From Chlorobiota bacterium (lineage in GTDB: Bacteria; Bacteroidota; Ignavibacteria; Kapaibacteriales; UBA2268), in NCBI GenBank assembly GCA_041596515.1, contig JBFHIJ010000003.1, forward strand, positions 82,945 through 146,944: a stretch of DNA of 64,000 bases. The letters run 5' to 3'. The first letter of the stretch is position 1; each line of letters begins with the position of its first letter. This document shows positions 3,122 to 61,644 of the stretch, in pieces. Made by a program: the position numbers and the translations under genes. The notes beneath the pieces are model-generated. The model was not told the origin of the DNA. It did not search any database and worked only from the letters and a program-made list of their open reading frames with translations.

Positions 3122-3276
3122 AACCAGAGATTGGCATTAGTAAAGATTGGAAAGCATTAAAGTTGTTAACTGGCAATGGGTGTAAAACCCCTTGTTCCAA
3201 TAAGTAAATACCTAAGATTTGCTTACAGTGCAAGTGAGCATGCTCCTCGCTTCTTTTTTGCTACAATCTCTGGGTT
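3122..3276 (-). repeat. dispersed ~175-nt repeat family, diverged copy in reverse orientation
   Basis: Contains GGTGTAAAACCCCTTGTTCCAATAAG and AGTGAGCATGCTCCT, which are reverse complements of the family core TTGAACAAGGGGTTTCAA and AAGGAGCATGCTTACT. Lies between the permease stop and a bidirectional terminator. Confidence 0.7.
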
Positions 3277-3317
3277 TATAATAAGGATTCGAGTTAATTC
3301 CCTTATTGTAGCAAAAT

Positions 3318-3350
3318 AAAAGCTACCTCTTTTGTAAAGAAGTAGCTTTT
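3318..3350. terminator. bidirectional rho-independent terminator (permease / metG convergent pair)
   Basis: AAAAGCTAC ... GTAGCTTTT stem with A- and T-runs on both sides, 27 nt from the metG stop. Confidence 0.6.
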
Positions 3351-3376
3351 ATTACACATAATGATATTTATACTTA

Positions 3377-5572
3377 CTACCTTACTTCTGCTCCACCACC
3401 TATTTCAGCTTTCTCAGGAGAAATGAAGGATAGTTTGCCATCCTCTGTATTTGCAGCTAATATCATGCCTTGAGATTCAATTCCCATAATCTTAACAGGT
3501 TTTAGATTGGCTACCATTACTACTGTTTTGCCAACTAAGTATTCGGGGGCGTAGTGCTCTGCTATCCCTGCAACAACCTGCCTTTGCTCATCACCAAGTT
3601 TTACTTGCAATTTTAATAGCTTTTTAGATTTTTTCACTTTTTCTGCTTCTACGATGGTAGCAGTTCTGAGCTTTACTTTCATAAAGTCATCAAACTCTAT
3701 TACTTGCGACAGTTCTTCGGCTTTTGCCTTTTTAGCAGCAATTTTAGCAGCCGCTACTTTTAGTGATTCTACTTCTTTTTCTACGAATTCATCTTCAATT
3801 TTTGTAAAAATCAAATCCGGCTTCCTAAATGTATGTCCTTCTTCCACAGTTGGGTAAGCTGCGAGATACCATATATCTCTAAGCTCCTTGCCATTGTTTG
3901 CTTCGCCTGTATACGACTGCACTTCCAATATCTGACTGATTCGCTTAGACGCGAAAGGGACTATCGGAGCAAAAATGATAGATAGAGTATGTACAAGCTG
4001 GACACAGAAGTAAAGTGATTTGGCTGCTCTGTCAGCATCGTCTTTTACTGCTTTCCATGGTTCCTCATCATTGAAATATTTGTTTGCCGCACGAGCTACA
4101 TTCATTGTTTCCATTATTGCATCGCGGAAACGGAATCGCTCGTAGCAACTTGATATTTTATTTAAGCCCGAGTGTACTGCTTTTATAACTACCAAATCAT
4201 TATCTGACAGCTCTAAATAGTCGTCTCTGTTGATTTCTTTATCAGGATTTTCATTCATAAAATCAATTAGATTATTCCATTTTGCAGGAACCCTTGCGTA
4301 TTTCTCAGGTAGAGAAGGCACTTTAGCATCAAAGTTTTTATGTGTAAACTGCAGAGAGCGATTTACAAAATTGCCGAAGATAGCTGCCAGTTCGTTATTG
4401 TTTTTACTTTGAAAATCTTTCCAGGTAAAGTCAGCATCTTTTGTTTCCGGAAAATTGGTTGCCAAGGTATATCTTAGTGCATCTATGTAATATGTACCAC
4501 TGTGGTTTGAAATAAAGTCACGAAGGTCAATGCTCCAGTTCTTAGATTTGGAGAATTTTTCGCCTTCAAGATTTAAAAACTCATGAGCGGGTACGTTATC
4601 CGGCAAGATATATCCACTGCGAGCATGAAGCATAGCTGGAAAGATAAGTGTATGGAAGACTATATTGTCTTTACCGATGAAAGCAAGATATCTTGTCTCA
4701 TCGTCCTGCCACCATTTTTTCCAATCGTTCGGTCTGTCATGTTGTTTCATAAATTCTTTAGTAGCAGTAATGTATCCTAAAACTGCATCGAACCACACAT
4801 AGAGGACTTTACCTTCTGCTTTCTTTTTATCTACACCGGGGATTTCTTTAATTTTGACACCCCAGTCTAAATCTCGCGTTATAGCTCGCTCAGCTAATCC
4901 CTGTTTTAGCCAACTACGAGTTTGTTGGATTACGTTATCTTTCCAGTATTTTGATTTTTCTTCAATATATTTCTCTAAGAACTCCTGGAACATATCGAAC
5001 CTAAAGTACCAATGAGTAGTTTTTTTAACCTCAGGAGTACCCCCAGAAACAGTCGAAATTGGATTTTTCAGTTCTATCTGATTATAGTAAGCACCACATT
5101 TGTCACACTGGTCACCTCTGGCTCCATCCTCGCCGCAATTAGGGCAAGTGCCTTCCACATATCTGTCCGGCAAAAACATTTTTGCTTTCGGATCATAAAA
5201 CTGCTCTTCTTCTTTATCAATCAAATATCCTTTTTCCAGGAAGTCACCAAAAAACTCTTTAGCAGTTTCATGGTGTGATTCGATAGAAGTTCTGGAATAA
5301 TTATCAAAACTCATCCCGAAAGCTTCAAAAGCTGCTTTATTTGCAGAGTGGTATTTATCTATAATATGCTTAGGAGTAACTTTTTCTTTTTCTGCAGAAA
5401 TGGTAATAGCCACGCCATGCTCGTCAGAACCGCAAACGTACAGGATGTCCTCTCCCTTCAATCTGGAGTAGCGGGCATAAATGTCAGCAGGCAAGTAAGC
5501 TCCTGCAGCATGCCCAAGATGGATATACCCATTAGCATAAGGCAAAGCCGAAGTAATCAGAGTTCTTTTCAT
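3377..5572 (-). CDS. metG: methionine--tRNA ligase
   Basis: HIGH-type HLGH, KMSKS-type KFSKS, Zn knuckle CPNCG...CDKCG. C-terminal EMAPII/Trbp111-like tRNA-binding domain (KVKLRTATIVEAEKV...GMILAA). An alternative upstream ATG lies at 5584. Confidence 0.95.
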   Translation of the reverse strand: MKRTLITSALPYANGYIHLGHAAGAYLPADIYARYSRLKGEDILYVCGSDEHGVAITISAEKEKVTPKHIIDKYHSANKAAFEAFGMSFDNYSRTSIESHHETAKEFFGDFLEKGYLIDKEEEQFYDPKAKMFLPDRYVEGTCPNCGEDGARGDQCDKCGAYYNQIELKNPISTVSGGTPEVKKTTHWYFRFDMFQEFLEKYIEEKSKYWKDNVIQQTRSWLKQGLAERAITRDLDWGVKIKEIPGVDKKKAEGKVLYVWFDAVLGYITATKEFMKQHDRPNDWKKWWQDDETRYLAFIGKDNIVFHTLIFPAMLHARSGYILPDNVPAHEFLNLEGEKFSKSKNWSIDLRDFISNHSGTYYIDALRYTLATNFPETKDADFTWKDFQSKNNNELAAIFGNFVNRSLQFTHKNFDAKVPSLPEKYARVPAKWNNLIDFMNENPDKEINRDDYLELSDNDLVVIKAVHSGLNKISSCYERFRFRDAIMETMNVARAANKYFNDEEPWKAVKDDADRAAKSLYFCVQLVHTLSIIFAPIVPFASKRISQILEVQSYTGEANNGKELRDIWYLAAYPTVEEGHTFRKPDLIFTKIEDEFVEKEVESLKVAAAKIAAKKAKAEELSQVIEFDDFMKVKLRTATIVEAEKVKKSKKLLKLQVKLGDEQRQVVAGIAEHYAPEYLVGKTVVMVANLKPVKIMGIESQGMILAANTEDGKLSFISPEKAEIGGGAEVR

Positions 5573-5680: not shown

Positions 5681-5719
5681 AAAAAAAAACAGCCGGATAT
5701 CTTATTGTATATCCGGCTG
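5681..5719 (-). terminator. rho-independent terminator of the PGM/PMM gene
   Basis: CAGCCGGATAT / ATATCCGGCTG 11-bp stem. On the minus strand it is followed by a T9 run (A-run 5681-5689 on plus). Confidence 0.8.
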
Positions 5720-7215: not shown

Positions 7216-7605
7216 AATAATTTACTCTTATTTATGTTTAGCGATTCTGTTATATTTATTCTATTAGTAGATATTACAAAGAAGAAGTACTTTGGGTTTA
7301 ATTGTATTTGAAAAATACAAGAAAATATGATAGACTGAAGGCTGTTTGCCTTAAGGTTTCTAAATACAAACTTACAAAATGCCATTAGAGAATGCAACTA
7401 CACAAGTGTACTGATTTGATTTGATTCGAAGCGAAAGTTAGTTCGTTTTGTTTGTATGGATGTATAACAAAACAGGAATAATGATTAAAGGGTAGTTGTC
7501 GCATTTAAATAACTGTATATTTAAATATGTTATTTATCTGACTGTTCTAATGCAAATTCCAGATTATTATAGTATTTATTTGATATAAACAAATGGCTTT
7601 TTCCC

Positions 7606-9802: not shown

Positions 9803-10087
9803 ATAATTCTCCCTAAAACTTATTATATAAAATCGAGTGATATAAAGCCTAAAACAGATTAAACATATTGCATGGAAACACATATTTATACAATATTGTT
9901 TATCTATTTTAATATTAGAATTATAATAGCTAAAATTTTAGTAATAAACAAGATATTATTTACAATATTACAATTTTCATCAATTAATACTTCATATTTC
10001 TACATAGTTATATTGATGTTATTTAAATTATAAACATTATTTAGGCACATATCGGTTAATATGCGGGGCGGTAAGGAATGATTTTAG

Positions 10088-10265
10088 TTCGGTGATGTCA
10101 TTAGATGCCATAAATAATGCTGTAAATGACCGTAGTATCAGGGCATATGCTTGTTTCTTCTGTAATACAATATTACGTAATGGCTTGTTGAACAAGGGGT
10201 TTCAACCCCCTTGCCATACAATGACTTTAGAGATTATTTATATTTTCAAATGACATTTTTAGGTT
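10088..10265 (+). repeat. dispersed ~175-nt repeat family copy
   Basis: GATGTCATTAG...GCTGTAAATGACCGTAG...ATTACGTAAT...TTGAACAAGGGGTTTCAACCCCC...CAAATGACATTTTTAGG aligns end to end with the other copies. Confidence 0.85.
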
Positions 10266-10410
10266 TAGTGAATTATGCTGATTTAGAATTGAGTTTAAGC
10301 TTATAAGTAGATTGAGTATTGAGATGAAAAAAATAAAAGACCGAATTTATCAAGGGTGTGTTTTTTCAAATGGTATGCGTAAAAACTAAATTCGGTCTTT
10401 ATTTAAACGT

Positions 10411-18867: not shown

Positions 18868-18957
18868 CCCGGAATTTGTCATTAGAAAACAAGCTTGCTC
18901 CTTGGTTCTACGAGCATTTACAGCATCTAACTGCAAGGCCATGTTAAGGGATTTGGG
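18868..18957 (-). repeat. dispersed repeat family, short rearranged/internally deleted copy
   Basis: Starts CCCGGAATTTGTCATTAG (TIR). Continues CAAGCTTGCTCCTTGGTTCTACGAGCATTTACAGCA, the reverse complement of the family core TGCTGTAAATG..CGTAGAACCAAGGAGCA.GCTT. About half the normal length. Confidence 0.6.
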
Positions 18958-19925: not shown

Positions 19926-20425
19926 CTAAAACATAAAATACGAATTGTGTTAAAGTGGAGTTCGCACAAAACACATAAATCTAAAGAAGGTGAGTAAACT
20001 TGTATTTTGAAAAGAAGAATAAAGATAATAAATGATTACGTTAACGCTTATATTCCTTTGATTATTTATAATCCCCAAAAGCCTATGAGCTATAAGACAT
20101 TATAAATAAAAACTACCTATTATGGTTGACAAATGCTACTTTTCGCACACCTTAACTTCCAGCTTTGTTCCTCGAATGAAAATATAGTATATTGATAAAC
20201 TTGCAATATTGAGCGATATTGCATATATTAAAACATGAAATGTAATCATGCATTTTTATCATAAAAAGACCTCTATTAGAAGTATTACTTCAATATTTTA
20301 CTTTCCCATTGTCCCTAAAAAGATTGCGTATCATCTTCAGTAGGGTGAAATGGGTTAAATATTCTGTGTCTTTGTATATTCCTCAACTTGATATATTTTT
20401 TTATACAATACAAAAAGGTGGAGAA

Positions 20426-20935
20426 ATGGCCAGAAAAGAAAAAAGCATCGAATTATTAAACAAAGCGATTTCTGATGAGCTTACAGCAGTGCATCAGTAT
20501 ATGTACTTTCATTTTCATTGCGATGACCAAAGTTATGACTTATTAGCTCAGCTTTTCAAAATGACTGCTATTCAAGAAATGATGCATATTGAGATGTTAG
20601 CTGAAAGAGTTCTATTCCTGAAAGGGGAAGTAGAGATGACGACTTCTGAACCAGTTAAAAAAATTCACAATATAAGAGAAATGTTAGAAATTGCAGTTAA
20701 AATGGAAGAAGATAGTGCTACTGATTATAACTTGTGGGCTAATGAGTGCTCTGCAAATGCAGATTCCGTATCTAAAAAACTTTTTGAGTCTTTAGTTGAA
20801 GATGAAGAAAAGCACGGAGATCAATTTGATGTAGAATTAGAAAACTTAAGTAAATTTGGGGATAACTATCTTGCATTGCAATCTATTGAAAGAAGTAAAA
20901 CTATTTCAATGGCCGGAATGCCTCCAAAAGCGTAA
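20426..20935 (+). CDS. bfr: bacterioferritin / ferritin-like di-iron protein
   Basis: GGTGGAG RBS before ATG 20426. Four-helix ferritin ligand pattern (DELTAVHQY, IQEMMHIE, EEDSATDY, EDEEKHGD). Confidence 0.8.
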   Translation: MARKEKSIELLNKAISDELTAVHQYMYFHFHCDDQSYDLLAQLFKMTAIQEMMHIEMLAERVLFLKGEVEMTTSEPVKKIHNIREMLEIAVKMEEDSATDYNLWANECSANADSVSKKLFESLVEDEEKHGDQFDVELENLSKFGDNYLALQSIERSKTISMAGMPPKA

Positions 20936-20975
20936 TATTTTTTATTAGTATTGTTTGATAGACGCTAAAATCTAC

Positions 20976-21010
20976 AGAGGCACAATGTTTATTGTGTCTC
21001 TTATTTTTTT
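20976..21010 (+). terminator. rho-independent terminator of bfr
   Basis: AGAGGCACAAT / ATTGTGTCTCT stem followed by TATTTTTTT. Confidence 0.7.
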
Positions 21011-21041
21011 GCTTTCGTAGTACTTGCTTTGTAATATCTTT

Positions 21042-21914
21042 CTATTTCTCTCTTAGCACTTTCATTTGTATGAGTGAGAAGACTATTAATATCATAAATA
21101 GAGTGTAAGCAATAGCTGAGGCGTATCCCATCAAATCAGACTCTTTAAAGGCATTTTCGTACACTTGGTATACTAATGTGGTCGTAGAGTGTAAAGGCCC
21201 TCCCTTGGTCATTACAAACACTTCTACAAAGACCTGAAAAGACTTGATGCTATTGATAATTAACACAAACATTAGAGTTGGCCGCAGTAGAGGGAAAGTT
21301 ATTTCCCAGAATTGCCTCATGGGAGATGCACCGCTTAGCTCAGCGGCTTCATATAAATCATTTGAAATAGTTTGCATGCCGGCAAGAAAAAGTACCATAT
21401 AGTAACCCGATGCCATCCAGATATCCATTGCCATGATAGACATGAGCGAGGTAGAAGGTTCTGCCAGCCACCCCCTTTCCGTTCCGCTAAAGCCAAGCAT
21501 CTGCACAAGTGAATTTACATAACCATCTATTGAGTAAAGATTAGTAAAAATCAGTGCAATCACGACCAAAGCGGTTACCGATGGCATAAAATAAGCTGCA
21601 CGAAAAAAATCTTTCAGTCTAATAAACTTCTTATTCAGCACATTAGCCATAAATATTGCTAAAGCAGTAGTTATAGGCACGCTACCAAGAGTAAAGATGC
21701 TGGTATTAGTAAGTGCTTTCCAAAACAACTCATCGCTAAGCATATTTTTATAATTATCTAAACCTACCCAAAAAGCTTCCCCGGTTAAAGTATTATACTC
21801 AGTCATGCTCATATAAGCAGAGTACAAAAGCGGATAAAACCAAAAGACTAGAAAAGTAAGAAGCCATGGCAAGAGCATAATTAAGGTATTGAGCTTAGAT
21901 TTTGCATTGTTCAT
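21042..21914 (-). CDS. carbohydrate-type ABC transporter permease (MalF/UgpA-like), orphan
   Basis: Six hydrophobic segments. EAA loop EAAELSGASPMRQFWEITFPLLRP. No partner permease, binding protein or ATPase nearby. Confidence 0.8.
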   Translation of the reverse strand: MNNAKSKLNTLIMLLPWLLTFLVFWFYPLLYSAYMSMTEYNTLTGEAFWVGLDNYKNMLSDELFWKALTNTSIFTLGSVPITTALAIFMANVLNKKFIRLKDFFRAAYFMPSVTALVVIALIFTNLYSIDGYVNSLVQMLGFSGTERGWLAEPSTSLMSIMAMDIWMASGYYMVLFLAGMQTISNDLYEAAELSGASPMRQFWEITFPLLRPTLMFVLIINSIKSFQVFVEVFVMTKGGPLHSTTTLVYQVYENAFKESDLMGYASAIAYTLFMILIVFSLIQMKVLREK

Positions 21915-22513
21915 CAGGCAAAGTGCTCCATCAGCATTTTATATAACAGTTGCAAAGGGAGACCTACTATGTTATAGTAGCACCCTTCTATTCTATTTAC
22001 AAACACAGCTCCAAAGTCATCCTGGATGCCATAAGCGCCGGCTTTGTCCATTGGTGAGCCTGTAGCGACATAAGCATCTATCTCACTATCGCATAACTCA
22101 CGAAAACTTACTTCGGTAGCTTCATAACTTACATTGCCCTTATCCGCAAAGCTGTCATAAATGGCAACTCCTGTAAAAACAGTATGCGTGTTATCACTAA
22201 GAGTTCTCAGCATTTTTTTAGCATCGTTCTCATCTAAAGGCTTTTCGAGAACGAATTCGCCTAATACGACGATGGTGTCCGATCCAATAAAAACAGCATT
22301 AGAATTACTCATATCAGCCGCAGCCTTAGCCTTCTTTGAGGCAAGCTGCATAACATACTCTGCCGGTGGCAGACAGTCCGAATTAACTTCCTCAATGCTG
22401 GCAGGCATTATAGAAAATTCCAGCCCCAACATCTCCAAGAGGAACTTGCGTCTGGGAGATTGGGAGGCAAGAATGATAGGCTTGTTTATATCAATAATCT
22501 GATTAATATTCAT
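21914..22513 (-). CDS. maf: Maf-family nucleoside triphosphate pyrophosphatase
   Basis: ILASQSPRRKFLLE and GAYGIQD motifs. Its stop overlaps the permease ATG by 1 nt (TGATG). Confidence 0.85.
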   Translation of the reverse strand: MNINQIIDINKPIILASQSPRRKFLLEMLGLEFSIMPASIEEVNSDCLPPAEYVMQLASKKAKAAADMSNSNAVFIGSDTIVVLGEFVLEKPLDENDAKKMLRTLSDNTHTVFTGVAIYDSFADKGNVSYEATEVSFRELCDSEIDAYVATGSPMDKAGAYGIQDDFGAVFVNRIEGCYYNIVGLPLQLLYKMLMEHFA

Positions 22514-22932
22514 TGCTAAAACTTGAATTATTCGGACAAAAGGAATAAAACAAAGATAGCAAATATATCTTAAACCTGTGAGGCTCTATTTGCAAAATAG
22601 GCAATAGTAATGCTCGCAGGCAATTTATATTAAAACAGCACTTTTATTTGCACACCATATTTTTGATATATCACATCTTTTGTGTTTATAACACCCGCGA
22701 AGGCTTCGAAAGTGTTATTTATCAATAGCGACATAACTTGACACGCAAGTGCCTATATTTAACAGCTATTATATCAAACAGATTGCAATTTTATACGTAT
22801 ATATAAATATAAATTATTTTTAGAATACATAAAAGAAAATCCGGTTTATTACAATTGTTTTATTTATATTATGCAATAATATTATATTCAATGCAAATAT
22901 TTTATTTGCTTTTTTGCTATTAGGAGTACATC

Positions 22933-23538: not shown

Positions 23539-23541
23539 AGA

Positions 23542-25770: not shown

Positions 25771-26022
25771 ACATTCTTCCCCCCACCCAAAAAAAATCCC
25801 TACCAAAAATAAAATAATTTGTATTAACAGAAGTTTCTTTATATTAGAGGATTATACTGTTTATATAGTTAGGGGTAGTTATATAAATGGTTATTTCAAA
25901 AAACAGGCGGTGACTTTCCTTTTTGGTTTGCCTTGACTTTTGCGTTTTGGCTAATCCCTCAGGCTGTGGCACTCGCACATTTATAATCGACATTCACACA
26001 TATTCTTATGGAGGCGATTTTT

Positions 26023-27180: not shown

Positions 27181-27192
27181 TCGGGAGATAAA

Positions 27193-28137: not shown

Positions 28138-28142
28138 AAAAC

Positions 28143-28179
28143 AGCTCGTCTTATCGCTAGAGGCGGGCTTTTATTTTTC
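28143..28179 (+). terminator. rho-independent terminator
   Basis: AGCTCGTCT / AGAGGCGGGCT stem (G:U pairs) followed by TTTATTTTT, 6 nt after the stop. Confidence 0.75.
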
Positions 28180-28344: not shown

Positions 28345-28519
28345 ACCCGGATTTGTCATTAGGTGCCATTATAATTGCTGTAAATAACCGCAGAACCAAG
28401 GAGCATGCTTGCTTCCTCTATAAGAAATATTACGTAATTGCTTATTGAACAGGGTTTCGGTCCCTTGCCTTTTAATGACTTTAGAGCTTTTTTGTTTTTT
28501 CTAATGACATTTTTGGGAT
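28345..28519 (+). repeat. dispersed ~175-nt repeat family copy
   Basis: CCCGGATTTGTCATTAGG ... CTAATGACATTTTTGGGAT. In this copy the two ends are complementary over 9 nt (TGTCATTAG/CTAATGACA). Confidence 0.85.
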
Positions 28520-35269: not shown

Positions 35270-35443
35270 CCCGGGTTTGTCGTTAGGATGTCATCATAGT
35301 GCTGTAAATGACCGTAGAATCAAGGAGCATGCTTACTTCTTCTGTAAGAATATGTTACGTAATTGCATATTGAACAAGGGGTTTCAACCTGCTTTTTAAT
35401 AGCTTTAGAGCTTTTCCATCTTTTCTATTGGCAACTCTCGGCT
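35270..35443 (+). repeat. dispersed ~175-nt repeat family copy (diverged right end)
   Basis: CCCGGGTTTGTCGTTAGG...ATTGAACAAGGGGTTTCAACC...TCTATTGGCAACTCTCGGCT. Substitutions at the two ends still allow pairing through G:U. Confidence 0.8.
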
Positions 35444-38640: not shown

Positions 38641-38655
38641 TGTTCTTTCCTCCTA

Positions 38656-39816: not shown

Positions 39817-39828
39817 TTTTTTTAACTC

Positions 39829-41097: not shown

Positions 41098-41279
41098 AAT
41101 TTAAATATCACTAAATGTTATTGAAAAGAGAGAATAAGTATAAGACTGATTAATCGAGCCAATATTGAAGTTGAATTATATTTTGCAATTTATTAAATTA
41201 TAGATAGAATAGGTAGCCCTATTGAAAGAACAAACTTGTATATTACACATTTACTCATCAAAAGAGTGCAAAAGCACTA

Positions 41280-42446
41280 TTATTTCCAATCTATTTCAAC
41301 TAATTCCTGATTGGTACATTTTGCACTTGTAGGGTTAGATTTTGATTTTCTTGCAAAGGTAAGTGCTTCTTTTTTGCATGAGTCGATACAATCACCGCAT
41401 GCCATACATTCTGTATTATCAATGGTAGAGATTTTGTTTTCGCGAGTAATCGCATTGATATCGCACGATTTGTTGCAACTTACGCACGAATTGCAATTAT
41501 CTTTTTTTGCTGCTATAACCGAGGCACCGGGTATCATCTGTACCCAGCCTAACACAAGACCAATAGGGCAGACAGTCTTGCAGAATGGTCTATACATAAA
41601 TAATGAGCTTATAAGTAGTAGACCAAGTAAAATCCATGTAATATTATAAAATGCCAACAAGTTAAAGGCTGCTTTAAATGGATCTATAGCGCAGAACCAA
41701 TTGGTATGTGTTATAGCTAATTGGGTAATCAATGCTAAAAGTAGCACTATTCTAATCCAGCGCATCACTTTTTGGGATTTGGCTGACTTAAGTATCTCAA
41801 ATTTGTTTGATTTATAAAGGAATTCCTGAAAAGCACCGAGATGGCAGACCCAGCCGCACCATGTTTTCCCGAATATGTATGTCAACGGTATTAAACCAAG
41901 AAACCATATTAAATTTTGCCATGGAATATTTACCCCAAACCCTAAAAGAAATATTTCCTGAAAGGAAGAAATAGGACAGGGGCATCCGCCATTATAGAAA
42001 CCAAAAAATATAAGAGTGCTTAGTAGGAATAGTATTCTTGTTTTACGAAGGGGGCGAAAGCGTACAAACACACCGGCAACAGCTGTCAGCAAAAGAGCAA
42101 ATAAAGCCCAGTTTAATCGACTCTGTAAGTGTTCTGCTTCCTTGAGACTTGCAGAATTTTCATCATCTTCTTGATCAAAAGAAGTAAACTCCTCTTGACT
42201 AAAATCCTCAAATTCATCTACTTCGGAAGCCACTGCTCGTAGCTCTTCTGTTTCATCGAAGTCCTCAAATTCATCATCAGATGAGTTGTTTTCTGTTAAA
42301 TGGGAACTGTCCTTATCTATTTCTTCAGTCACCGTAGCTGCCTCCTTTGGAAAAGCAGCACATCCGGCGCAAGTGTTACAGTTCTCTGCATACGTAGCTT
42401 GGTAAATAAGTATTGCAAATAAAAAAGCAAGGACAGTTCTCATCAT
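41280..42446 (-). CDS. membrane-bound polyferredoxin (NapH/YccM-like 4Fe-4S binding protein) with acidic N-terminal region
   Basis: Signal peptide, then an acidic repeat region (DDEFEDFDE...VDEFEDFSQEEF...DQEDDE). TM helices carry GGCPCP, WCGWVCHLG, RPFCKTVCPIG. C-terminal 2x[4Fe-4S] motifs CNSCVSCNKSC and CMACGDCIDSC. Confidence 0.7.
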   Translation of the reverse strand: MMRTVLAFLFAILIYQATYAENCNTCAGCAAFPKEAATVTEEIDKDSSHLTENNSSDDEFEDFDETEELRAVASEVDEFEDFSQEEFTSFDQEDDENSASLKEAEHLQSRLNWALFALLLTAVAGVFVRFRPLRKTRILFLLSTLIFFGFYNGGCPCPISSFQEIFLLGFGVNIPWQNLIWFLGLIPLTYIFGKTWCGWVCHLGAFQEFLYKSNKFEILKSAKSQKVMRWIRIVLLLALITQLAITHTNWFCAIDPFKAAFNLLAFYNITWILLGLLLISSLFMYRPFCKTVCPIGLVLGWVQMIPGASVIAAKKDNCNSCVSCNKSCDINAITRENKISTIDNTECMACGDCIDSCKKEALTFARKSKSNPTSAKCTNQELVEIDWK

Positions 42447-42454
42447 TAAAAACC

Positions 42455-42835
42455 TTATTTAGTAGTAACTTCAAAAGTACCTAATCCACCCTCTTTATCA
42501 CATTTTCGCACTGCTTTTAGCACAGCTTTACCTTTGCCTGATTTAGTTACTTTGATTTTAAGTTTTCTCTCAAACTGACCGGATGAAGTTTCTCGCCATT
42601 TAGTACCTTGAACTATTTCAAAGCCATTGGGTTGAAATTTTGTAGTTTTGATACCTTCTGGGCAACTTTTATGAGTAAAAAAGACTTCTACTTTTACGAT
42701 TAAAATATCGCCTTTTGAGTAAGTTGATTTTTCGCCTTTAAGCACTTTGAAGTCAATTTCACACGCAAGTGCAGAAACTGTAAAAATTACAAAGGCTAAG
42801 GAGCTGACAATTAACACTTTCAAAAATCTATTCAT
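42455..42835 (-). CDS. hypothetical small secreted Cys-containing beta-rich protein
   Basis: Signal peptide ...VSALA|CEIDF. Four Cys including HKSCPEG and RKCDKEGG. Lies 8 nt upstream of the polyferredoxin gene, a likely operon. Confidence 0.5.
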   Translation of the reverse strand: MNRFLKVLIVSSLAFVIFTVSALACEIDFKVLKGEKSTYSKGDILIVKVEVFFTHKSCPEGIKTTKFQPNGFEIVQGTKWRETSSGQFERKLKIKVTKSGKGKAVLKAVRKCDKEGGLGTFEVTTK

Positions 42836-43042
42836 CTATGTACCTCTAACGAATATGTTGTTCAATATTTCAACTATCCCAATTCTTGTGCCAATTTGTA
42901 ATGAAGAGTAGTCCAGGGAGTGTTATTTACTTTAAATATGGGAGTATAGCGAACTTGAGATATTGTTTGCAATTGAAAAGATTTCGACATAAGCGACGAA
43001 AAAGGTACATATTTGTCGAAATAAAAGTACCATATTTCCTCT

Positions 43043-44485
43043 TTATTTCTGCCAAAAAGAAGGTGCAAGTAAAATCACGACAGTATAAACTTCTAACCTT
43101 CCTAATAGCATCAGTCCGGATAAAACCCATTTGACTTCTCCGGATAGGAATGCATAATTATCAGTTGGTCCTACCAGCTCTAAGCCCGGGCCAATATTAT
43201 TTAAAGTAGCGGCAACCGCACCAATAGCCGTAACTATGTCCAATCCTTGGAATGTTAAAAACAGGGAAGAAAATGCAGCTATAAGCATATATAATACGAA
43301 AAAGCCCAGTATATTCATCATCACATCTCTGCTTACACTAATATTCCCCATTCTAATCGGAACTATTGCCTGAGGATGTACCAATCGAACTATCTCTGCA
43401 TATACAAATTTAAAAAGGAGATAGATTCTCATTACTTTCATACCACCGCCTGTAGAGCCTGCCATGCCACCTACAAACATTATCAGAAACAGTATTAACT
43501 GCGAACTTATTGACCATTGTTCGTAATCTGCGGTGCCAAATCCGGTGGTAGTTATAATTGACACAACTTGGAAAAGTGTATACCTAAGAGTTTCGAGTAT
43601 AGAAGAGTAATTATTGATATAAGTATCTATACCGATGCCCAAAGTAGCAAAAGCAATTATGGCAAAGTAAAACTGCAACTCTCTATTAACAAAGACTTCT
43701 TTGATGTTGCCTTTTAATATCCTATAGTGTAGCGAGAAATTCATGCCGGCGATAATCATAAAGATAATTATAATATAATCTATATATGCCGAATTAAAAC
43801 CGCCAACGCTTTTGTTTAAAGTCGAATAACCACCGGTAGCCATTGTTCCAAATGTATGGCAAAGTGCCTCATGCAAATTCATACCGGCAAGCATAAGCAA
43901 TATAGTTTCTATCACAGAAAGCAATACGTAAACACCCCACAGTATTTTCGCTGTCTCTGTTACTCGGGGGGTAAGCTTGTCAGCTATTGGTCCCGGCACC
44001 TCAGCTTTAAAGAGCTGCATACCACCAACTCCCAACAGTGGCAAAATAGCTATGCCGAGTACTATAATCCCCATGCCACCAACCCAATGCGTAAAGCTTC
44101 TCCACAACAATATACCTTCCGGCAACACCTCTATATCTGTCAAGATGGTTGCCCCTGTGGTAGTAAAGCCTGACATGGTTTCAAAAAATGCATCGGTAAA
44201 TGAAGGAATATAATTGCCTATTATATAGGGTAATGACCCAAAAGCAGAAAATACAATCCACCCCAGTGCTACTATCATAAAGCCCTCTTTGGGGCGAACT
44301 TCTTGCTTAGTCCTAAAAAGAAAAAATGCCAATGCTCCAACTAACATTGTTATCCCGGAGCTTACACTTATCGAAAAAGTATCACCACCTCCGTAATACA
44401 AAGAAAACGGAAGAGCAAAGAGCATAGACGCTCCTAAAAACATGGTTATAAAACCTAATACTCTTATTACTATTTTATATCTCAT
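43043..44485 (-). CDS. trkH: Trk system K+ uptake protein TrkH
   Basis: 480 aa, multi-TM. Pore-loop motifs FTTTGATI, MATGGYS, ITTTGFG, GSTGGGMK. Confidence 0.9.
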   Translation of the reverse strand: MRYKIVIRVLGFITMFLGASMLFALPFSLYYGGGDTFSISVSSGITMLVGALAFFLFRTKQEVRPKEGFMIVALGWIVFSAFGSLPYIIGNYIPSFTDAFFETMSGFTTTGATILTDIEVLPEGILLWRSFTHWVGGMGIIVLGIAILPLLGVGGMQLFKAEVPGPIADKLTPRVTETAKILWGVYVLLSVIETILLMLAGMNLHEALCHTFGTMATGGYSTLNKSVGGFNSAYIDYIIIIFMIIAGMNFSLHYRILKGNIKEVFVNRELQFYFAIIAFATLGIGIDTYINNYSSILETLRYTLFQVVSIITTTGFGTADYEQWSISSQLILFLIMFVGGMAGSTGGGMKVMRIYLLFKFVYAEIVRLVHPQAIVPIRMGNISVSRDVMMNILGFFVLYMLIAAFSSLFLTFQGLDIVTAIGAVAATLNNIGPGLELVGPTDNYAFLSGEVKWVLSGLMLLGRLEVYTVVILLAPSFWQK

Positions 44486-44494
44486 ATGCCTCTA

Positions 44495-45835
44495 TCAAAA
44501 CATCTTTTCTACATTTTTTACAGCTCCGGGCAAAGCGAATACTACTACTCTATCGCCGGATTCTACTTGCGTATGTCCGGTAGGAATTACAAGCTGTTCC
44601 CCATTTTTCAATACAGCTGCTACCAGACTGTTCTGAGGGAATTTTAGTTCCATCAGAGGCTTTTTGCATATAGTGGATTTTCCTTTCGCTTCAAACTCAA
44701 TTATTTCCGCATCCATCCCCGGCAACTCAGCATACTGAGTTACTTGCCTGCTACGAATAAATTTTTGGATTGCATTTACTGTGATTAGCTGTTTACTGAC
44801 AACAGCATCCATGCCAATGGAGGGAGTTAGAGGCATATACTCATTTTTCTTGATTAGTGTCACAGTTCTCGGCACTTTCAAGTGGCGCGAGATTAAGCTG
44901 GTTATAATATTTGTTTCGTCGTCTCCGGTCACAGCTATAAACTCGTCCATCTCATTTAGATTTTCAAAAGTAAGCAAATCTAAATCAGAACCATCACCAT
45001 TAATAACAAGAGTTTTCTTTAAATCATAAGCAAGCTTTTCTGCTTTTTTTCTATTTTTTTCGATTATTTTAATTTTCATTTCGGTTTCGAGAGCCCTGGC
45101 AATAAATCTGCCGACCTGCCCACCGCCGATTATCATAATATCTTCTATAATTTTTTTAGTCTTTCCGAAATATTCTAAGGCTTTTGACATATAGTCAGGT
45201 GCACAAATGATAAACAACTGGTCACCTTCTAAAAGTCTGTCTTCACCTCTCGGCACTATTGTAAATTGCTTACGTTTTAATGCTACAATTCTCAAAGGTG
45301 GATTGCCATGAGTTTCACCTAAATCTTTGAGGGGAGTTTGCAATACAGGGCAACCTTGGTCTAACCTGATGCCTAAAAATTGGATTTTACCTTCGTCAAA
45401 TTCTACAATATCAGTAGCATTTGACTGCTTGATTAGTCGAATTATAGCATCTGCCGTTTCTTTTTCAGGATGGATAATATAATCTGCACCCAGTTCCTCT
45501 TTTGATAACATAAAAGAAGGAGAAGCATAATCAGGATTTTTCACACGGGCTATAGTAGTCTGCACACCAAACTTTTTTGCCATTTTGCAAGTAAGCAAAT
45601 TCACTTCATCATTGGTAGTCATAGCCGCAAATACATGAGTATTTTGAATATCTGCAGCTTTTAATATATCTACACTTGTAGCATTACCTTCCACTACCAT
45701 AGCATCTAAATGCTCATGAGCATATTTTACTTTAGAGCTAGCTTTTTCAATAATGGTTATATTATGCTTATCAAGGGACAGCCGATGAGTTAAACGAACA
45801 CCGACGCTCCCGGCACCAACGATAAGAAGATTCAT
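44495..45835 (-). CDS. trkA: Trk system K+ uptake protein TrkA (two RCK N/C pairs)
   Basis: IVGAGSVGVRL and IIGGGQVGRFIA Rossmann motifs. 446 aa. Immediately upstream of trkH. Confidence 0.9.
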   Translation of the reverse strand: MNLLIVGAGSVGVRLTHRLSLDKHNITIIEKASSKVKYAHEHLDAMVVEGNATSVDILKAADIQNTHVFAAMTTNDEVNLLTCKMAKKFGVQTTIARVKNPDYASPSFMLSKEELGADYIIHPEKETADAIIRLIKQSNATDIVEFDEGKIQFLGIRLDQGCPVLQTPLKDLGETHGNPPLRIVALKRKQFTIVPRGEDRLLEGDQLFIICAPDYMSKALEYFGKTKKIIEDIMIIGGGQVGRFIARALETEMKIKIIEKNRKKAEKLAYDLKKTLVINGDGSDLDLLTFENLNEMDEFIAVTGDDETNIITSLISRHLKVPRTVTLIKKNEYMPLTPSIGMDAVVSKQLITVNAIQKFIRSRQVTQYAELPGMDAEIIEFEAKGKSTICKKPLMELKFPQNSLVAAVLKNGEQLVIPTGHTQVESGDRVVVFALPGAVKNVEKMF

Positions 45836-46018
45836 ATCCCAATCCGATTTTCAAAAGTCAAATTTTGTACGAATACAAATAAAGCAAAAAAGAATCAAAT
45901 ATTTTAGTTATTTAAAATTTTAGGGATAATAAAACATACAATAGCCTTAATCCTCACTATAAATATGATTCTTCTGGTATAATAATATTCGAGAGCAGGA
46001 AAAAATAGAAGGGAGCAT

Positions 46019-46195
46019 CCCGGATTTGTCATTAGGATGTCGTCATAGTGCTGTAGATCATTGTAGAACCAAGGAGCATACTTACTTTCTCTGCAAGAAA
46101 ACATTACGTAATTGCTTATTGAACAAGGAGTTTCAACCCCCTCGCATTCAATGACTATAGAGCTGTTTCCATCTTTTTAAATGACATTATTGGAT
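46019..46195 (+). repeat. dispersed ~175-nt repeat family copy
   Basis: CCCGGATTTGTCATTAGG...ACATTACGTAATTGCTTATTGAACAAGGAGTTTCAACCCCC...TAAATGACATTATTGGATT. Confidence 0.85.
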
Positions 46196-46264
46196 TCATA
46201 TATTTTTGTCTAATATTAAGCAGTTTCTAAATGCAGCTACTTCGTTGTGGGATGAAATAAAAGC

Positions 46265-46300
46265 AAAAAAAAAGAGACTCCGAGGGTAGGGGGAGTCTCT
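46265..46300 (-). terminator. rho-independent terminator of hsp20 array
   Basis: AGAGACTCC / GGAGTCTCT stem. The minus strand continues with T9. A T-run is also present on the plus strand. Confidence 0.8.
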
Positions 46301-46384
46301 TATATTTTTCCGAACACTTATTTGTGTACGACTTTTCCTTATAAATACCTATTCCATTGCGTGCATAGCTAAGGTGTCGGAAAA

Positions 46385-46834
46385 TTAGTCTATAGTTATT
46401 TCTAATTCGTTGGGCTTTTCCGGTTCAGTTTTCAATATTTCCAAGTTCAACACTCCGTTTTCATATTTAGCTCTAATGCTTTCTTTATCAACATTTTCAG
46501 GCAAAATAAATGAACGTGTAAAACTTCCATAAGTTCTTTCTGAGCGAATCAGTCGTTTGTCATCTTCTTCCTTTTCTTCAAACACACTTCTTTTTTCACC
46601 TGAGATGATAAGCATATTATCGTCATTTACCTTAACTTTTACGTCTTCTTTTGCTATACCTGGTAATTCCGCAGAAACCCAAAATCTATCATCTTCTTCC
46701 TGTACGTCTATTTTTGGCATCCAAGCAGATGTATTAAACACCATACTTCTTCTGTTAAATCCATCCATCCATCTGTCCATTCTGCGGATTACACTGTCTA
46801 CTCCGGTAAAAGGATCATATTTTACTAAAGTCAT
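46385..46834 (-). CDS. Hsp20/alpha-crystallin small heat-shock protein (copy 3)
   Basis: Alpha-crystallin domain AELPGIAKEDVKVKV...GEK...SFILPENV...NGVLNLEILK. GGAGGTG RBS. Confidence 0.9.
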   Translation of the reverse strand: MTLVKYDPFTGVDSVIRRMDRWMDGFNRRSMVFNTSAWMPKIDVQEEDDRFWVSAELPGIAKEDVKVKVNDDNMLIISGEKRSVFEEKEEDDKRLIRSERTYGSFTRSFILPENVDKESIRAKYENGVLNLEILKTEPEKPNELEITID

Positions 46835-46952
46835 AATACACCTCCGTAGGGCAATTCAACAAAACTATTTGGTCAATTATTTAGGGAAAAGCTAAAATTT
46901 AATTATTCCAATCTTTATGTTCAAATCCGAACAAAACACAATCAATATGAAA

Positions 46953-47402
46953 CTAATCTATATTTACTTCTACTTCTTTCGGCTTAACCGGCTCTTTTTT
47001 ACTTAGAGTAATATGCAAGACGCCGTTGTCATGTTTAGCACTGATCGAGGCAGTATCTATATTTTCCGGTAGTTGGAAAGAGCGGGAAAACTCACCAAAA
47101 CTTCTTTCAGCTCGTATATATGATTTTTCCTTGCATTCATCTGTTTCTTCCTCGCATCTTTTCTTTTCGCCTTTTACCATAAGTACTTTATCTTCGTTTA
47201 CGGTAATTTTAACCTGCTCTTTCGGAATACCGGGAAGTTCAGCAAAGAGCCTCAATGTTTTTTCGTCTTCTATTATGTCAATCGTAGGGGCAAAAGAGCC
47301 ATATTCTACTCTATATCCTTTTTCCATATCGTCTACAATTTGTCCCATTCTTTTATTCATCTTTTCGAATCCTCTAAAAGGATCAAATCTTACAGTTCCC
47401 AT
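46953..47402 (-). CDS. Hsp20/alpha-crystallin small heat-shock protein (copy 2)
   Basis: AELPGIPKEQVKITV...SFQLPENI...NGVLHITLSK. AGGAGA RBS. Confidence 0.9.
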   Translation of the reverse strand: MGTVRFDPFRGFEKMNKRMGQIVDDMEKGYRVEYGSFAPTIDIIEDEKTLRLFAELPGIPKEQVKITVNEDKVLMVKGEKKRCEEETDECKEKSYIRAERSFGEFSRSFQLPENIDTASISAKHDNGVLHITLSKKEPVKPKEVEVNID

Positions 47403-47576
47403 TATTCTATCTCCTATATTTAATTATTTAATTTCTTTGATTCTATTTTCTAAAGAAGAGTCCGATGCTTTTTCACTGCTATTCTGTTCATTTAATAATT
47501 GGTGTTATGAAAACTTATTGAGAAGTCTTATGCCTAATGCTATGGTATTCGTTTCACACCGGACTCTGTCCTTAAT

Positions 47577-48014
47577 TTAATCTATCGTTATATTAATCTC
47601 TTTTGGTTCTTCAGGCTCTTTTTTGTTTAGTGAAAGCTCTAACAAGCCATTTTTGAAAGAAGCTTTGATATTTTCTAAGTCAATATCTTCAGGGAGAACA
47701 AAAGATCTAGTAAATTCACCAAAAGAGCGTTCAATGCGAATTTGTGATTCGCCTTCATTAATCACAGGTTTTTTCTTTTCACCTTTGATAGTCAAAATCC
47801 TTTCTTCATTTACCGATACTTTTACATCTTCTTTAGCTAAACCGGGCACTTCTGCAGATACCACTACTTTGTTGTCATATTCTGTTATATCTACTCGTGG
47901 ATTAAAACCACCTTTTTCGAATACAAATCCTTTTTCAACTTCGCCTGCAATATTTTGCATCTTGCGAGTCATGTTTTCAAAATGTCTAACCGGATCGAAT
48001 TTAATCATTGTCAT
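47577..48014 (-). CDS. Hsp20/alpha-crystallin small heat-shock protein (copy 1)
   Basis: AEVPGLAKEDVKVSV...SFVLPEDI...NGLLELSLNK. AGGAGA RBS. Confidence 0.9.
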   Translation of the reverse strand: MTMIKFDPVRHFENMTRKMQNIAGEVEKGFVFEKGGFNPRVDITEYDNKVVVSAEVPGLAKEDVKVSVNEERILTIKGEKKKPVINEGESQIRIERSFGEFTRSFVLPEDIDLENIKASFKNGLLELSLNKKEPEEPKEINITID

Positions 48015-48237
48015 CTCTAAATCTCCTATTTATGTATTTGCTTTGTTGATTTCAATTTCGCTTACATGATAGAGTATTAGCAAAACCGTGCCAAAAACAA
48101 AACAATGCCACAATGGCAGCAATAAAGGACAAGATGACAGTCGGTACAGTCATTTTGGCAATTATCAGCAATATTAAAGACAATATGTCAGGTGCATGTC
48201 TGCCATATTTGCATTGTTCTGTGATTTTTAAAATAAC

Positions 48238-48412
48238 CCCAGATTTCTCATTAGATGTCATCATAGTGCTGTAAATGACCGCATAGCCAAGGAGCATGCT
48301 TACTTCCTCTGTAAGAAAATATTACGTAATTGCCTATTGAACAAGGGGTTTCAACCCTTGCCATTTACTGACTCTAGAGCATTTTCATCTTTTCAAATGA
48401 CATTTTTGGGAT
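48238..48412 (+). repeat. dispersed ~175-nt repeat family copy (near-consensus)
   Basis: CCCAGATTTCTCATTAGATGTCATCATAGTGCTGTAAATGACCGCATAGCCAAGGAGCATGCTTACTTCCTCTGTAAGAAAATATTACGTAATTGCCTATTGAACAAGGGGTTTCAACCCTTGCC...CAAATGACATTTTTGGGAT. Confidence 0.9.
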
Positions 48413-48633
48413 AAAGTCAAGTGTATGTTAGCCTTCGCTACTATAATTATTGGCAATTATTATTTAGTCCAATATTTTAAAAGTCTCTTACGTATCATAT
48501 TAGAGTATCTAATTTGCATCTTGACTTACCAAACAATACTGAATAATATATACCTGAATTTCTTTTTTGACTTGTATAAACTACATGAATTTAGTATTCT
48601 TGCTATTATAAAATGTGATGTATCGAGAACACA

Positions 48634-49980
48634 ATGAAACAGATTCGACAAAGCTCGGAGGAGCAACTTCAAAAACTCGTTTCACGCTTGAATGAGGAGA
48701 AGGAAGCTCTCTCTGCTAAAATCCAAAAGCAGAATCAGGAACTTTCGGAGTTGCTTATATATTCTGAGATGGTGGTTATTGAATCTACCCAGGATATGAA
48801 AATTCTAAATATTTTGGGAGATATAGAATATGTTTTCGAAAATGTTGCTACTCAGGTGGAGCGTGGTTCTGATCTGACTATGCTGGTGGCAAAAGCTACT
48901 CAGGCGACTCAAAACAGAACTGAAGACTCTGAGGCTGAAGATATTGTTGATATCGTTACCAAATTTGTACAAAGTCCTCGCTCGGAAAAGAAAATAGAAA
49001 TACTTGGAGTAAAAGAAGAAAGTGGCGAGCTGTTTTTGCTCGATTGGAAGATGCTAAAAGCCGGAAAATTGATTAAATCCTACTTTAAGATTACTCCTAC
49101 TAATAATATCATCAAACAGACTACTGATAAATATGAATTCGCACTAGTCGAAAAAGATAAATTTTATGGCCAAGTATTTGAATACTCTCACCGGGGGGTT
49201 ACTATAATCAATCCCGACGGAAAAATCATATACATCAATACTTCGGCAAAGGATATGTTTATTTCAAAAGATAACAAGTTGATTAAAACAGAATCCTTAA
49301 TTGGCAGAACTTTCTTCGAGATTTTCCTGAATGATGATGCTGATGTAAATAAAGAAAGGCAAGTCAAGAATAATCAGGCATATATAACAAAATCATCTGT
49401 TACTTACGTTTCGCAAACTCACGAGGGCGACATAAAGTACGAGATACACCCGATATTTAACTCTAAACGTGCAGTTGTTTCTTTAGCAATTTTTAGCACT
49501 TTACTTAACTCGAGTGTATCAGGAGCCTTAGATAATAAAAAGTTGATGTCAACTCTTAAAACGCTGTATTCAGAAAAATCTATACTTACAGAAAGAATAA
49601 AGGAATTAGAGTACAACCATAAGTGGCTTATGAAAAACAGTCGCGATGTAGATATACAAAGGAAAAAATTATTCTATTATCTAAATAATTTGCCAATTCC
49701 TATTTCTGTTATTGATTTAAAAACAAAAAAATACGATTTTGTAAATAAAGAGTTTGAACAAAATATCAAAAAGAAAAGAGATGAAATAATCGGGCATAGA
49801 GATGTGCAGGTTTTTACTCAAATGGAAGCTGATTTTTTGGATGAAATATTGCTAAAAGGAGTAGAATGCAAACAGACTATTCCAATAAAAGGACTCGTCT
49901 TCGAAGGTATGCAGGCTATTGTAAAAAGTCAGCAAGATACCCCTTTGTATGCGATAAGAGTTTTTACTAAAATAAAATAG
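48634..49980 (+). CDS. hypothetical protein with N-terminal coiled coil and PAS-like repeats, no output domain
   Basis: [29 protein letters not shown] coiled coil. PAS-like segment [24 protein letters not shown]. No kinase, GGDEF or HTH motif seen. No obvious SD. Confidence 0.5.
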
Positions 49981-49991
49981 GAACCAGCATA

Positions 49992-50498
49992 ATGAATAAA
50001 CCTTTAGTGGGTATTATCATGGGCAGCGATTCGGATCTGACTACTATGCAGCCGGCTGCAGATATATGCAAAGAATTTGGAGTTGAATTTGAAATGAGAG
50101 TAGTCTCTGCTCACCGAACACCGATGGATATGGCTGATTATGGAAGAACTGCTCACGAAAGAGGAATCAAAGTTATCATCGCCGGAGCAGGCGGAGCCGC
50201 TCACTTACCTGGCATGACAGCAGCTTTTTCTCCATTGCCGGTAATCGGCGTGCCCGTTAAGTCAAGCACCCTAAGTGGTGTAGATTCGCTTCACTCTGTT
50301 GTACAAATGCCTCCGGGAGTGCCTGTTGCAACTGTAGCGATAGGTGGTGGCAAAAATGCAGGCTTGCTGGCTATGCAAATACTTGGAGTAGAAAATCCTG
50401 AGATACTTAAAAAAATGATTGAATATAAACTTCAAATGGCGGATGAATCACGAGCTAAAAACAACAACCCTGCTTTTACTCAAACATCTTTAAAATAG
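49992..50498 (+). CDS. purE: 5-(carboxyamino)imidazole ribonucleotide mutase
   Basis: [16 protein letters not shown] and AGGAAHLPG motifs. Confidence 0.95.
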
Positions 50499-50504
50499 TT
50501 TTAA

Positions 50505-50696
50505 CCCGTATATGTCATTAGATGTCATCATAGTGCTGTAAATGACCGTAGAACCAATGGAGAATGCTTACTTCCTCTTTAAGAAAAAATTACTTTGTGC
50601 AACGGGCTATACTTCGACTCGCTTGGCTCGCTCAGTCATCTTCCACCGTTGCACTGATTTAAGAATAGACTATCGCCTAACGATAAATCTGGGATT
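50505..50696 (+). repeat. dispersed repeat family, variant copy (canonical 5' half, different 3' half)
   Basis: The first ~90 nt are canonical (CCCGTATATGTCATTAGATGTCATCATAGTGCTGTAAATGACCGTAGAACCAATGGAGAATGCTTACTTCCTCTTTAAGAAAAAATTAC). It then diverges into a GTGCAACGG...CCGTTGCAC hairpin and ends AAATCTGGGATT. Confidence 0.65.
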
Positions 50697-50730
50697 ATCA
50701 CAATATCTGAATATAAACTTGCATTACACA

Positions 50731-55687: not shown

Positions 55688-55725
55688 CACTTAAAAAGTA
55701 TCAAATGGCATTCAAAATACTAGGG

Positions 55726-55755
55726 CTGTCTCTCGAAAGAGGCAGTCTTTTTTTT
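55726..55755 (+). terminator. rho-independent terminator of MCP gene
   Basis: CTGTCTCT / AGAGGCAG stem followed by TCTTTTTTTT. Confidence 0.8.
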
Positions 55756-55793
55756 GGACTCTAATGATTCGCCTTAATAAACTCTTAATTAAA

Positions 55794-55968
55794 CCTGGAT
55801 TTATCATTAGATGTAATCATAGTGCTGTAAATGACCGCAGAACCAAGGAGCATGTTTACTTCCTCTTTAAGAAAATATTACGTAATTACTTATTGAACAA
55901 GGGGTTTCAATTCCTTGCCATACAATACACTAGAGCATTTCCATCTTTTCAAATGACATTTTTGGGAT
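55794..55968 (+). repeat. dispersed ~175-nt repeat family copy
   Basis: CCTGGATTTATCATTAGATGTAATCATAGTGCTGTAAATGACCGCAGAACCAAGGAGCATG...ATTACGTAAT...TTGAACAAGGGGTTTCAA...CAAATGACATTTTTGGGAT. Confidence 0.9.
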
Positions 55969-56046
55969 TAAGTATAGATTGCCCCAACTACTAATAAAAA
56001 ATCCTTATAACTTTATCAGCTATAAGGATTTACAATTTTCTTTCTG

Positions 56047-61199: not shown

Positions 61200-61212
61200 A
61201 TGTCTATAGTTT

Positions 61213-61262
61213 ACCCCATAAGAGTTATCATAAATATAGCTCTTATGGGGTGGCTGTTTTCT
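61213..61262 (+). terminator. rho-independent terminator of abgT-like gene
   Basis: ACCCCATAAGAG / CTCTTATGGGGT 12-bp stem followed by GGCTGTTTTCTT. Confidence 0.6.
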
Positions 61263-61467
61263 TCCTGTACCACTTATAAATTGCGTCCCTCTAACCTTTT
61301 TCACTAAAAACTACAGGCTTTCATGCCACTATTTTATATCGATCTTCGGTGTTAGTATAACAATTTCTAATATCTCATTTCTTAGCGTTTCTTATAACTG
61401 TCCAATTTATTATATATAGAATATTTTATAATCTCTATGATTAATATTGAACTATATATTCTTTTAA

Positions 61468-61644
61468 CCTGGATTTGTCATTAGATACCATAATAGTGCC
61501 GTAAATGACCGTAGAACCAAGTAGTATGCTCACTTCCTCTGTAAGAAAATGTTACGTAATTGCTTATTGAACAAGGGGTTTCAATCCCTTGCCATTCAAT
61601 GACTTTAAAGCTATTTCATCTTTTTAAATGACATTTATGGGTTT
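61468..61644 (+). repeat. dispersed ~175-nt repeat family copy
   Basis: CCTGGATTTGTCATTAGATACCATAATAGTGCCGTAAATGACCGTAGAACCAAGTAGTATGCTCACTTCC...GTTACGTAATTGCTTATTGAACAAGGGGTTTCAATCCC...TAAATGACATTTATGGGTT. Confidence 0.9.

Follow-up and report, generated by a model that had tools for sequence, protein, structure and literature searches.

What is the short sequence that recurs between the genes of a 64,000-nt stretch of DNA from a Chlorobiota bacterium (GenBank assembly GCA_041596515.1, contig JBFHIJ010000003.1, positions 82,945 to 146,944), and by what means has it been dispersed? A first-pass annotation, made from the letters alone, had pointed out ten intergenic copies of one element in this stretch (hereafter the window; all window positions are counted from its first letter) and had proposed that they resemble miniature inverted-repeat transposable elements (MITEs). 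We found that the repeats very probably form a family of non-autonomous DNA transposons (MITEs) of a Kapaibacterium-like bacterium, moved in trans by a DDE-type transposase and generating 5-bp duplications in A/T-rich targets. The proposed transposon origin is supported by terminal inverted repeats (TIRs), by the 5-bp duplications, by the absence of the copy at 10088 from a sister genome, and by the lack of an open reading frame (ORF), of an Rfam match and of covariation. The family is previously undescribed; its host lineage is little studied, and the kind of element is well known.

Copies, termini and target-site duplications

A profile search with nhmmer, using a profile built from seven full copies, returned ten significant matches in the window, and no others rose above noise. 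Seven matches were full-length and on the plus strand (10082-10271, 28339-28525, 35263-35451, 46012-46202, 48232-48419, 55788-55974 and 61461-61648; E values from 1e-52 to 1e-61). The remaining three were partial, comprising the left half alone at 50498-50593 on the plus strand (E 1e-24), the right two thirds alone at 3117-3254 on the minus strand (E 1e-21) and a short internal-deletion derivative at 18884-18945 on the minus strand (E 2e-8). The window, with a G+C content of 35.7%, holds seven full-length and three variant copies of an element that is typically ~175 nt long (Table 1). In addition, a 30-nt core pattern allowing up to three mismatches matched six times in the window and not once in 100 shuffles. 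The profile search bears out the ten copies of the first-pass annotation together with their coordinates, strands (eight plus, two minus) and end sequences. Some of the accompanying descriptions needed revision. The sequence at 18868-18957 is a real copy, but it is internally deleted rather than rearranged, and it is flanked by a perfect duplication. The count of eight copies out of ten in one orientation holds, but it does not amount to a significant bias (two-sided binomial P=0.11). Furthermore, the ten listed copies are all real, but an eleventh, decayed copy at ~7373-7558 had been omitted. This copy gave a blastn match to one end of a related element from another species (L009, described below), and its orthologue in the sister genome (L015) is itself an nhmmer match (E 2.6e-26); the window copy was recognised only through the clear copy at the orthologous site of the sister genome.

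Both ends of the element carry 17-nt imperfect TIRs, as is characteristic of MITEs; the left-end consensus, CCCGGATTTGTCATTAG, recurs inverted at the right end. Two types of right end were distinguished. Type B, CTAATGACAAATCYSGG, is a near-perfect inverse of the left end and is found in copies 35270, 18868, 3117 and 50505 (copies are named here by their first position) as well as in several copies of the sister genome, and type A, AATGACATTTTTGGG, is a derived form. The perfect complementarity of the two ends over 9 nt, noticed earlier in the copy at 28345, was seen again here.

Directly outside the CCC...GGG termini lie 5-bp A/T-rich direct repeats, which are perfect in 8 of 19 copies (TTTAG, TTTAA twice, ATAAA, ATTAA twice, TTTAT and ATAAT); in a further three copies the flanking 5-mers match at four of five positions. 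When the left flank of one copy was compared with the right flank of another as a cross-copy control, perfect matches occurred in 6.7% of cases (binomial P=1.6e-5). Moreover, the variant 5-mers co-vary on the two sides of a copy (TTTAG with TTTAG, TTTAT with TTTAT and ATAAT with ATAAT), and the repeats are therefore the signature of a duplication and not a motif borne by the element. A duplication of 3 or 4 bp was also considered and was replaced by one of 5 bp; the fifth base matches in all six perfect copies that are free of an offset.

The elements are also modular in build. The copy at 50505-50696, previously said to have a variant 3' half, does differ from the family studied here (family A), but the differing part is a separate end module shared with an element of another species. 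This right module (50594-50693) and the right half of a 187-nt element at locus L009 of a more distant relative (aconitase identity 93%) share 78% identity, and the left end of the L009 element is an inverted family-A right end; the L009 element is flanked by a perfect TTTAA duplication. Thus three end modules (A-left, A-right and the B-right module of window 50594-50693 and L009) occur in pairwise combinations, with the TIR as the only part common to all. End modules are swapped between elements. A TIR-like sequence, TCCAGATTTGTCATGAG, was observed in the sister genome directly after the AcrB terminator (L018 20457-20473), followed by sequence unrelated to family A; it may belong to another family with the same end or be a solo remnant. 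Window copy 35270 lies ~60 nt further from the AcrB terminator than this sequence does.

Insertion polymorphism, distribution and gene order

The sister genome is the metagenome-assembled genome (MAG) 'Candidatus Kapaibacterium sp.' CAXXGR01, whose lineage lies within Bacteroidota. It is syntenic with the window over long stretches at 89-95% nucleotide identity (92% for the phosphoglucomutase gene), and the aconitase and MurA proteins of the two are 97% and 99% identical in amino acids. Copy 10088 is missing from the sister MAG: positions 2749-2774 of its locus L015 correspond to window 10063-10314 within kilobase-long flanks of ~90% identity, and a single CTTAG stands there in place of the TTTAG-element-TTTAG of the window. 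The comparison of empty and filled sites recommended in the first pass therefore gave one polymorphic copy with a single 5-mer, but at a site that also bears an indel of ~45 nt. Copy 18868, on the other hand, is present at the same site in both genomes, almost identical, and its insertion is therefore older than the species split. Three copies of the sister MAG (L005 15-195, L018 5988-6175 and L018 2018-2109) have no counterpart in the window. Downstream of the aconitase terminator, both genomes have an element at the same point, in opposite orientations and with different compositions, the MAG copy being a standard one. No clean empty sites came from the intergenic regions that follow the MCP, aconitase and AcrB genes, which resisted alignment or contained other insertions. 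The presence and absence of copies, together with their sharing at orthologous sites, indicate that the family was active both before and after the species split, which fits the pairwise identity of 65-85% among copies and the lack of species-specific clustering.

The density of the family is similar in the two genomes, with 10-11 copies in the 64 kb of the window and six in ~65 kb of homologous sister MAG sequence. A further ~14 family-A copies, whether full, truncated or decayed, lie in the related loci, together with family-B elements. A degenerate 25-nt core pattern was searched against one genome per species (185,579 species) and matched a single assembly, the sister MAG CAXXGR01. The strict 25-nt pattern is matched by 6 of the 10 window copies and occurs at six places in the whole sister MAG, a number that undercounts the copies there, since none of the five MAG copies identified independently of the pattern and retaining the core region matches it. 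In JGI metagenome contigs, the family-A core gave no matches and the B-module pattern just two chance matches, which lacked TIRs; the TIR gave no matches in viral contigs. As judged from these sequence matches, the collections searched place the family-A core in this genus-level lineage only, and the TIR superfamily reaches at least as far as L009 and L012, from relatives whose aconitase is 93% identical. Logan short-read contigs of the window organism (SRR29257459), 99.98% identical to the window, begin and end inside copies (Table 1), because a dispersed repeat breaks assemblies in this way.

Colinearity between the window and the sister MAG ends at ten positions (5711, 7455, 7605, 19911, 20193, 28172, 35499, 45973, 50710 and 55695). 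At eight of the ten, a copy occurs no more than 175 nt away, in the window or in the MAG, and different genes follow beyond the block end. One end of an inversion spanning ~20193-28172 is among the block ends marked by copies. These observations suggest either that the copies serve as substrates for rearrangement or that insertions and breakpoints share permissive sites.

Table 1. Copies of the element in the window, and short-read contigs that are bounded within copies.
Feature	Position in window	Strand	Description
Variant copy	3117..3276	-	First ~50 nt of left half replaced; TIR variant CCAGAGATTG at both ends; flanks ATAAA/TTAAA (4/5 match); starts 19 nt past the stop of permease ORF 1803-3098
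Decayed eleventh copy	7373..7558 (approx.)	+	Left end ACAAAATGCCATTAG, right end CTAATGCAAATTCCAG; orthologue of sister-MAG L015 104-284
Full copy	10088..10263	+	Perfect 5-bp duplication TTTAG; the orthologous intergenic region in the sister MAG lacks it
Internally deleted copy, 88 nt	18869..18956	-	Perfect 5-bp duplication ATAAA; near-identical at the same sister-MAG site
Full copy	28346..28517	+	Between convergent genes; 173 nt from a colinearity block end (inversion relative to sister MAG)
Full copy	35270..35441	+	Type-B right end CTATTGGCAACTCTCGG; between the convergent terminators of the AcrB and S9 peptidase genes; a colinearity block ends 56 nt away
Full copy	46019..46193	+	46 nt from a colinearity block end
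Full copy	48238..48410	+	In a divergent intergenic region; flanks ATAA/ATAA
Chimeric copy	50505..50693	+	Family-A left half (50505-50593) and different right module (50594-50693); starts 7 nt past the stop of ORF 49992-50498
Full copy	55794..55966	+	Adjoins a tRNA gene; 5-bp duplication ATTAA, offset by 1 nt
Full copy	61468..61641	+	Perfect 5-bp duplication TTTAA
Logan contig L001	50556-55845		Bounded within copies
Logan contig L017	~35300-46125		Bounded within copies

Alternative explanations and the mobilising transposase

The element as a whole is a weak long palindrome, and at its exact midpoint (consensus 88-97, for example 48321-48330) lies a perfect 10-bp palindrome, ATTACGTAAT, which is its best conserved stretch and is followed in the conserved centre by TGCTTATTGAACAAGG. 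Among nine copies that had not been selected by pattern, the central 25 columns differ by 10% in pairwise comparisons against 23% overall (permutation P=0.047), and for the central 10 columns P rises to 0.21. The core described in the first pass as highly conserved is thus the best conserved part of the element, but only weakly more so than the rest. Such a centre raises the possibility that the family is a MITE by origin and that some copies, or the centre itself, have been co-opted to bind a protein or to act as a terminator or promoter. The midpoint palindrome and the lower divergence around it would fit this proposal, as would the site at which a copy of the sister MAG sits where the window has a terminator. 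We consider it improbable, because the excess of conservation is marginal, nine copies give little power, and the centre is absent from copies 50505 and 18868 and unaligned in the L009 element, all of which have TIRs and two of which have perfect duplications.

The copies contain no consistent ORF, in agreement with the first pass. The sole recurrent ORF, of 14 codons from AAGGAGCATG, was examined as a possible small peptide and is not maintained, with the start lost in 4 of 15 copies and the frame shifted or truncated in others; a 32-codon ORF that passes through chimeric copy 50505 has no equivalent in the other copies.

A structured non-coding RNA, or a cis-regulatory 3'-UTR family whose terminal stem is kept by G:U pairs, would be another way to account for conserved intergenic copies. 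The ends can indeed pair in RNA if G:U pairs are allowed, conservation is somewhat higher in the central 25 nt than elsewhere, and the two copies that start 7 and 19 nt past a stop codon are probably co-transcribed. Nevertheless, single copies folded no better than their shuffles (z -1.3 and -1.0), and RNAalifold gave -0.44 kcal/mol with zero compensatory pairs for 15 full copies. For a terminal stem plus a small GGGG/CCCC hairpin, every covariation measure lay at the mean of 500 shuffles; therefore the G:U 'compensation' between the ends of copy 35270, to which the first pass had drawn attention, is no more than shuffles give and is not evidence of selection for pairing. Furthermore, in line with the earlier statement that the repeat is not a known Rfam family, tRNA alone reached the gathering score and nothing relevant was found at E<=1 over 46000-50720. 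Copies also lie in both orientations relative to neighbouring genes, and an RNA gene would leave the 5-bp duplications and the swapped end modules unexplained. Taken together, these results make a structured RNA highly improbable.

Equally remote is a REP/BIME-like palindrome spread by a RAYT transposase (IS200/IS605-type, HUH) acting on hairpin DNA, since an element that is abundant, intergenic and imperfectly palindromic, and that in the sister genome replaces a hairpin of the window at one site, nonetheless measures ~175 nt with 17-nt TIRs, 5-bp duplications and a single-strand fold of no unusual stability, whereas REPs are 20-40 nt long and make no target duplication.

Several points weigh against a MITE family moved by a DDE-type transposase. 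A perfect duplication is missing from 11 of the 19 copies, which is expected because the copies are old (65-85% identical to one another). The sole empty site, that of copy 10088, is not clean, with ~45 extra nt beside the element in the window, and the phosphoglucomutase site is not a simple empty site, the window having a terminator hairpin where the MAG has its copy. Neither the window nor ~200 kb of related loci yielded a transposase gene or any longer element bearing these TIRs, and the assignment to a family of insertion sequences (IS), given below, draws on features of the ends and duplications alone. The statement that the window holds no transposase was borne out, and it holds no solo TIR either; the longer autonomous element with the same TIRs suggested earlier was sought there and in the related loci and not found, nor was a solo TIR or a TIR pair at an IS-like distance. 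Such a partner may lie elsewhere in the genomes or have died out. The only transposase met was rejected as the parent, its ends being unrelated. It is ISAs1-like (DDE_Tnp_1_assoc and DDE_Tnp_1, split into two ORFs) and was observed at L016 5700-8250 of the more distant relative GCA_942490685.1, inside an array of ~150-nt repeats (TTGACAAAGGAGGTTTGGAGGATTTACCTGAGCC...) that are unrelated to the family studied here.

Under the MITE reading, the element encodes nothing, and a DDE-type transposase supplied in trans would recognise the 17-nt inverted repeats. It would cut the two strands of A/T-rich targets (TTTAA, ATTAA, ATAAA and similar) with a 5-bp stagger, leaving the 5-bp duplication, and copies would be retained at the least harmful sites, for the most part between convergent gene ends. 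There is about an even chance, from comparison of the termini, that this transposase belongs to the IS1380 family, the relatives of piggyBac. IS1380 elements are characterised by termini starting with CC or CCC and ending in GGG and by duplications of 4-5 bp in A/T-rich, TTAA-like targets, and ISEcp1, a member of the family, makes 5-bp duplications. The ends of the element (CCC or CCT) and its 5-bp duplications agree with both hallmarks. In addition, the left end of ISEcp1, CCTAGATTCTACGTCAG (read from plasmid NZ_LT985286.1), matches the element, CCTGGATTTGTCATTAG, at 11 of 17 positions. We infer the link to IS1380 because of the CC(C)...GGG termini, the A/T-rich 5-bp duplications and this end similarity; no such transposase was found. 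The elements here, at ~175 nt against ~1.6 kb for the insertion sequence, have no transposase, so that the status of derivative is deduced from the shared features. IS1380 transposases form the prokaryotic outgroup to piggyBac, whose elements have CCC...GGG termini and duplications of TTAA, TTAG, TAAA or ATTA (PMC10813416); these ends and TTAA-like targets resemble those of the family here.

Comparison with other systems places the family among well-described kinds of element. Bacterial MITEs such as Correia/NEMIS of Neisseria, RUP of Streptococcus pneumoniae and Nezha of cyanobacteria are, like the present family, short, non-coding and multi-copy, with TIRs and target-site duplications; they measure 100-300 nt, lie mostly between genes and often in 3' regions, and depend on mobilisation in trans. 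They differ from it in that their sequences are unrelated, the present family comes from an uncultured lineage of Bacteroidota, no parent IS was found for it, and the duplication is 5 bp and A/T-rich, as against TA in Correia and RUP. Tn3-family ends begin with GGGG and are ~38 bp long, whereas the ends here begin with CCC and measure 17 nt. The Tn3-derived TIMEs are non-autonomous, use A/T-rich targets, make duplications of 5-6 bp and form mosaics by combining ends (PMC4133298); the family here has in common with them non-autonomy, A/T-rich targets, duplications and the mosaic habit.

A more far-reaching interpretation, which we regard as rather doubtful as a whole, is that these elements, with their interchangeable end modules, are the first MITE superfamily in Bacteroidota that can be ascribed to a transposase of the IS1380/piggyBac type, and that the copies are recombination substrates that scramble gene order between sister species. 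Within this interpretation, nothing beyond the 17-nt TIR would be needed for mobilisation, because elements are assembled from interchangeable end modules, and the conserved central palindrome might additionally be a binding site for a host protein or for the transposase. Should the link to IS1380/piggyBac and the association with synteny breakpoints hold genome-wide, the family would offer a useful example of genome rearrangement driven by MITEs. It opens no new class of biology. More immediately, the element explains why short-read assemblies of the host organism break every few kilobases, it is a repeat to be masked by annotators of Kapaibacteria MAGs, and its insertion polymorphisms can be used as strain and species markers. 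It also flags a transposase that is probably active, or was recently so, in a poorly known Bacteroidota lineage.

Gene context and further observations

The copies lie mostly between convergent gene ends and terminator-like hairpins. Six of the ten window copies are placed between convergent ORFs, in keeping with the first pass, which had put most copies there; copy 55794, for example, lies between the convergent terminator-like hairpins 55722-55749 (plus strand) and 56031-55999 (minus strand). Such convergent-gene intervals are where insertions harm least.

Downstream of the phosphoglucomutase gene, the minus strand of the window at 5690-5718 carries a hairpin resembling an intrinsic terminator (CAGCCGGATAT-loop-ATATCCGGCTG followed by T9). 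In the sister MAG, a full element (L005 15-195) stands exactly at the place of this hairpin, with flanks that match on both sides. The hairpin has GCCGGAT in common with the TIR of the element; it could be a reduced remnant of an element or a coincidence.

Among other features of the two genomes, the sister MAG has a gene for a reverse transcriptase of the group II intron type (RVT_1 and GIIM; L018 3322-4491, minus strand) that the window lacks. No second dispersed repeat family was seen in the window, where the only other long direct repeats stem from two adjacent paralogous S9 peptidase genes (31086-35181, plus strand). Three HSP20 genes stand in tandem at 46385-48014 on the minus strand.

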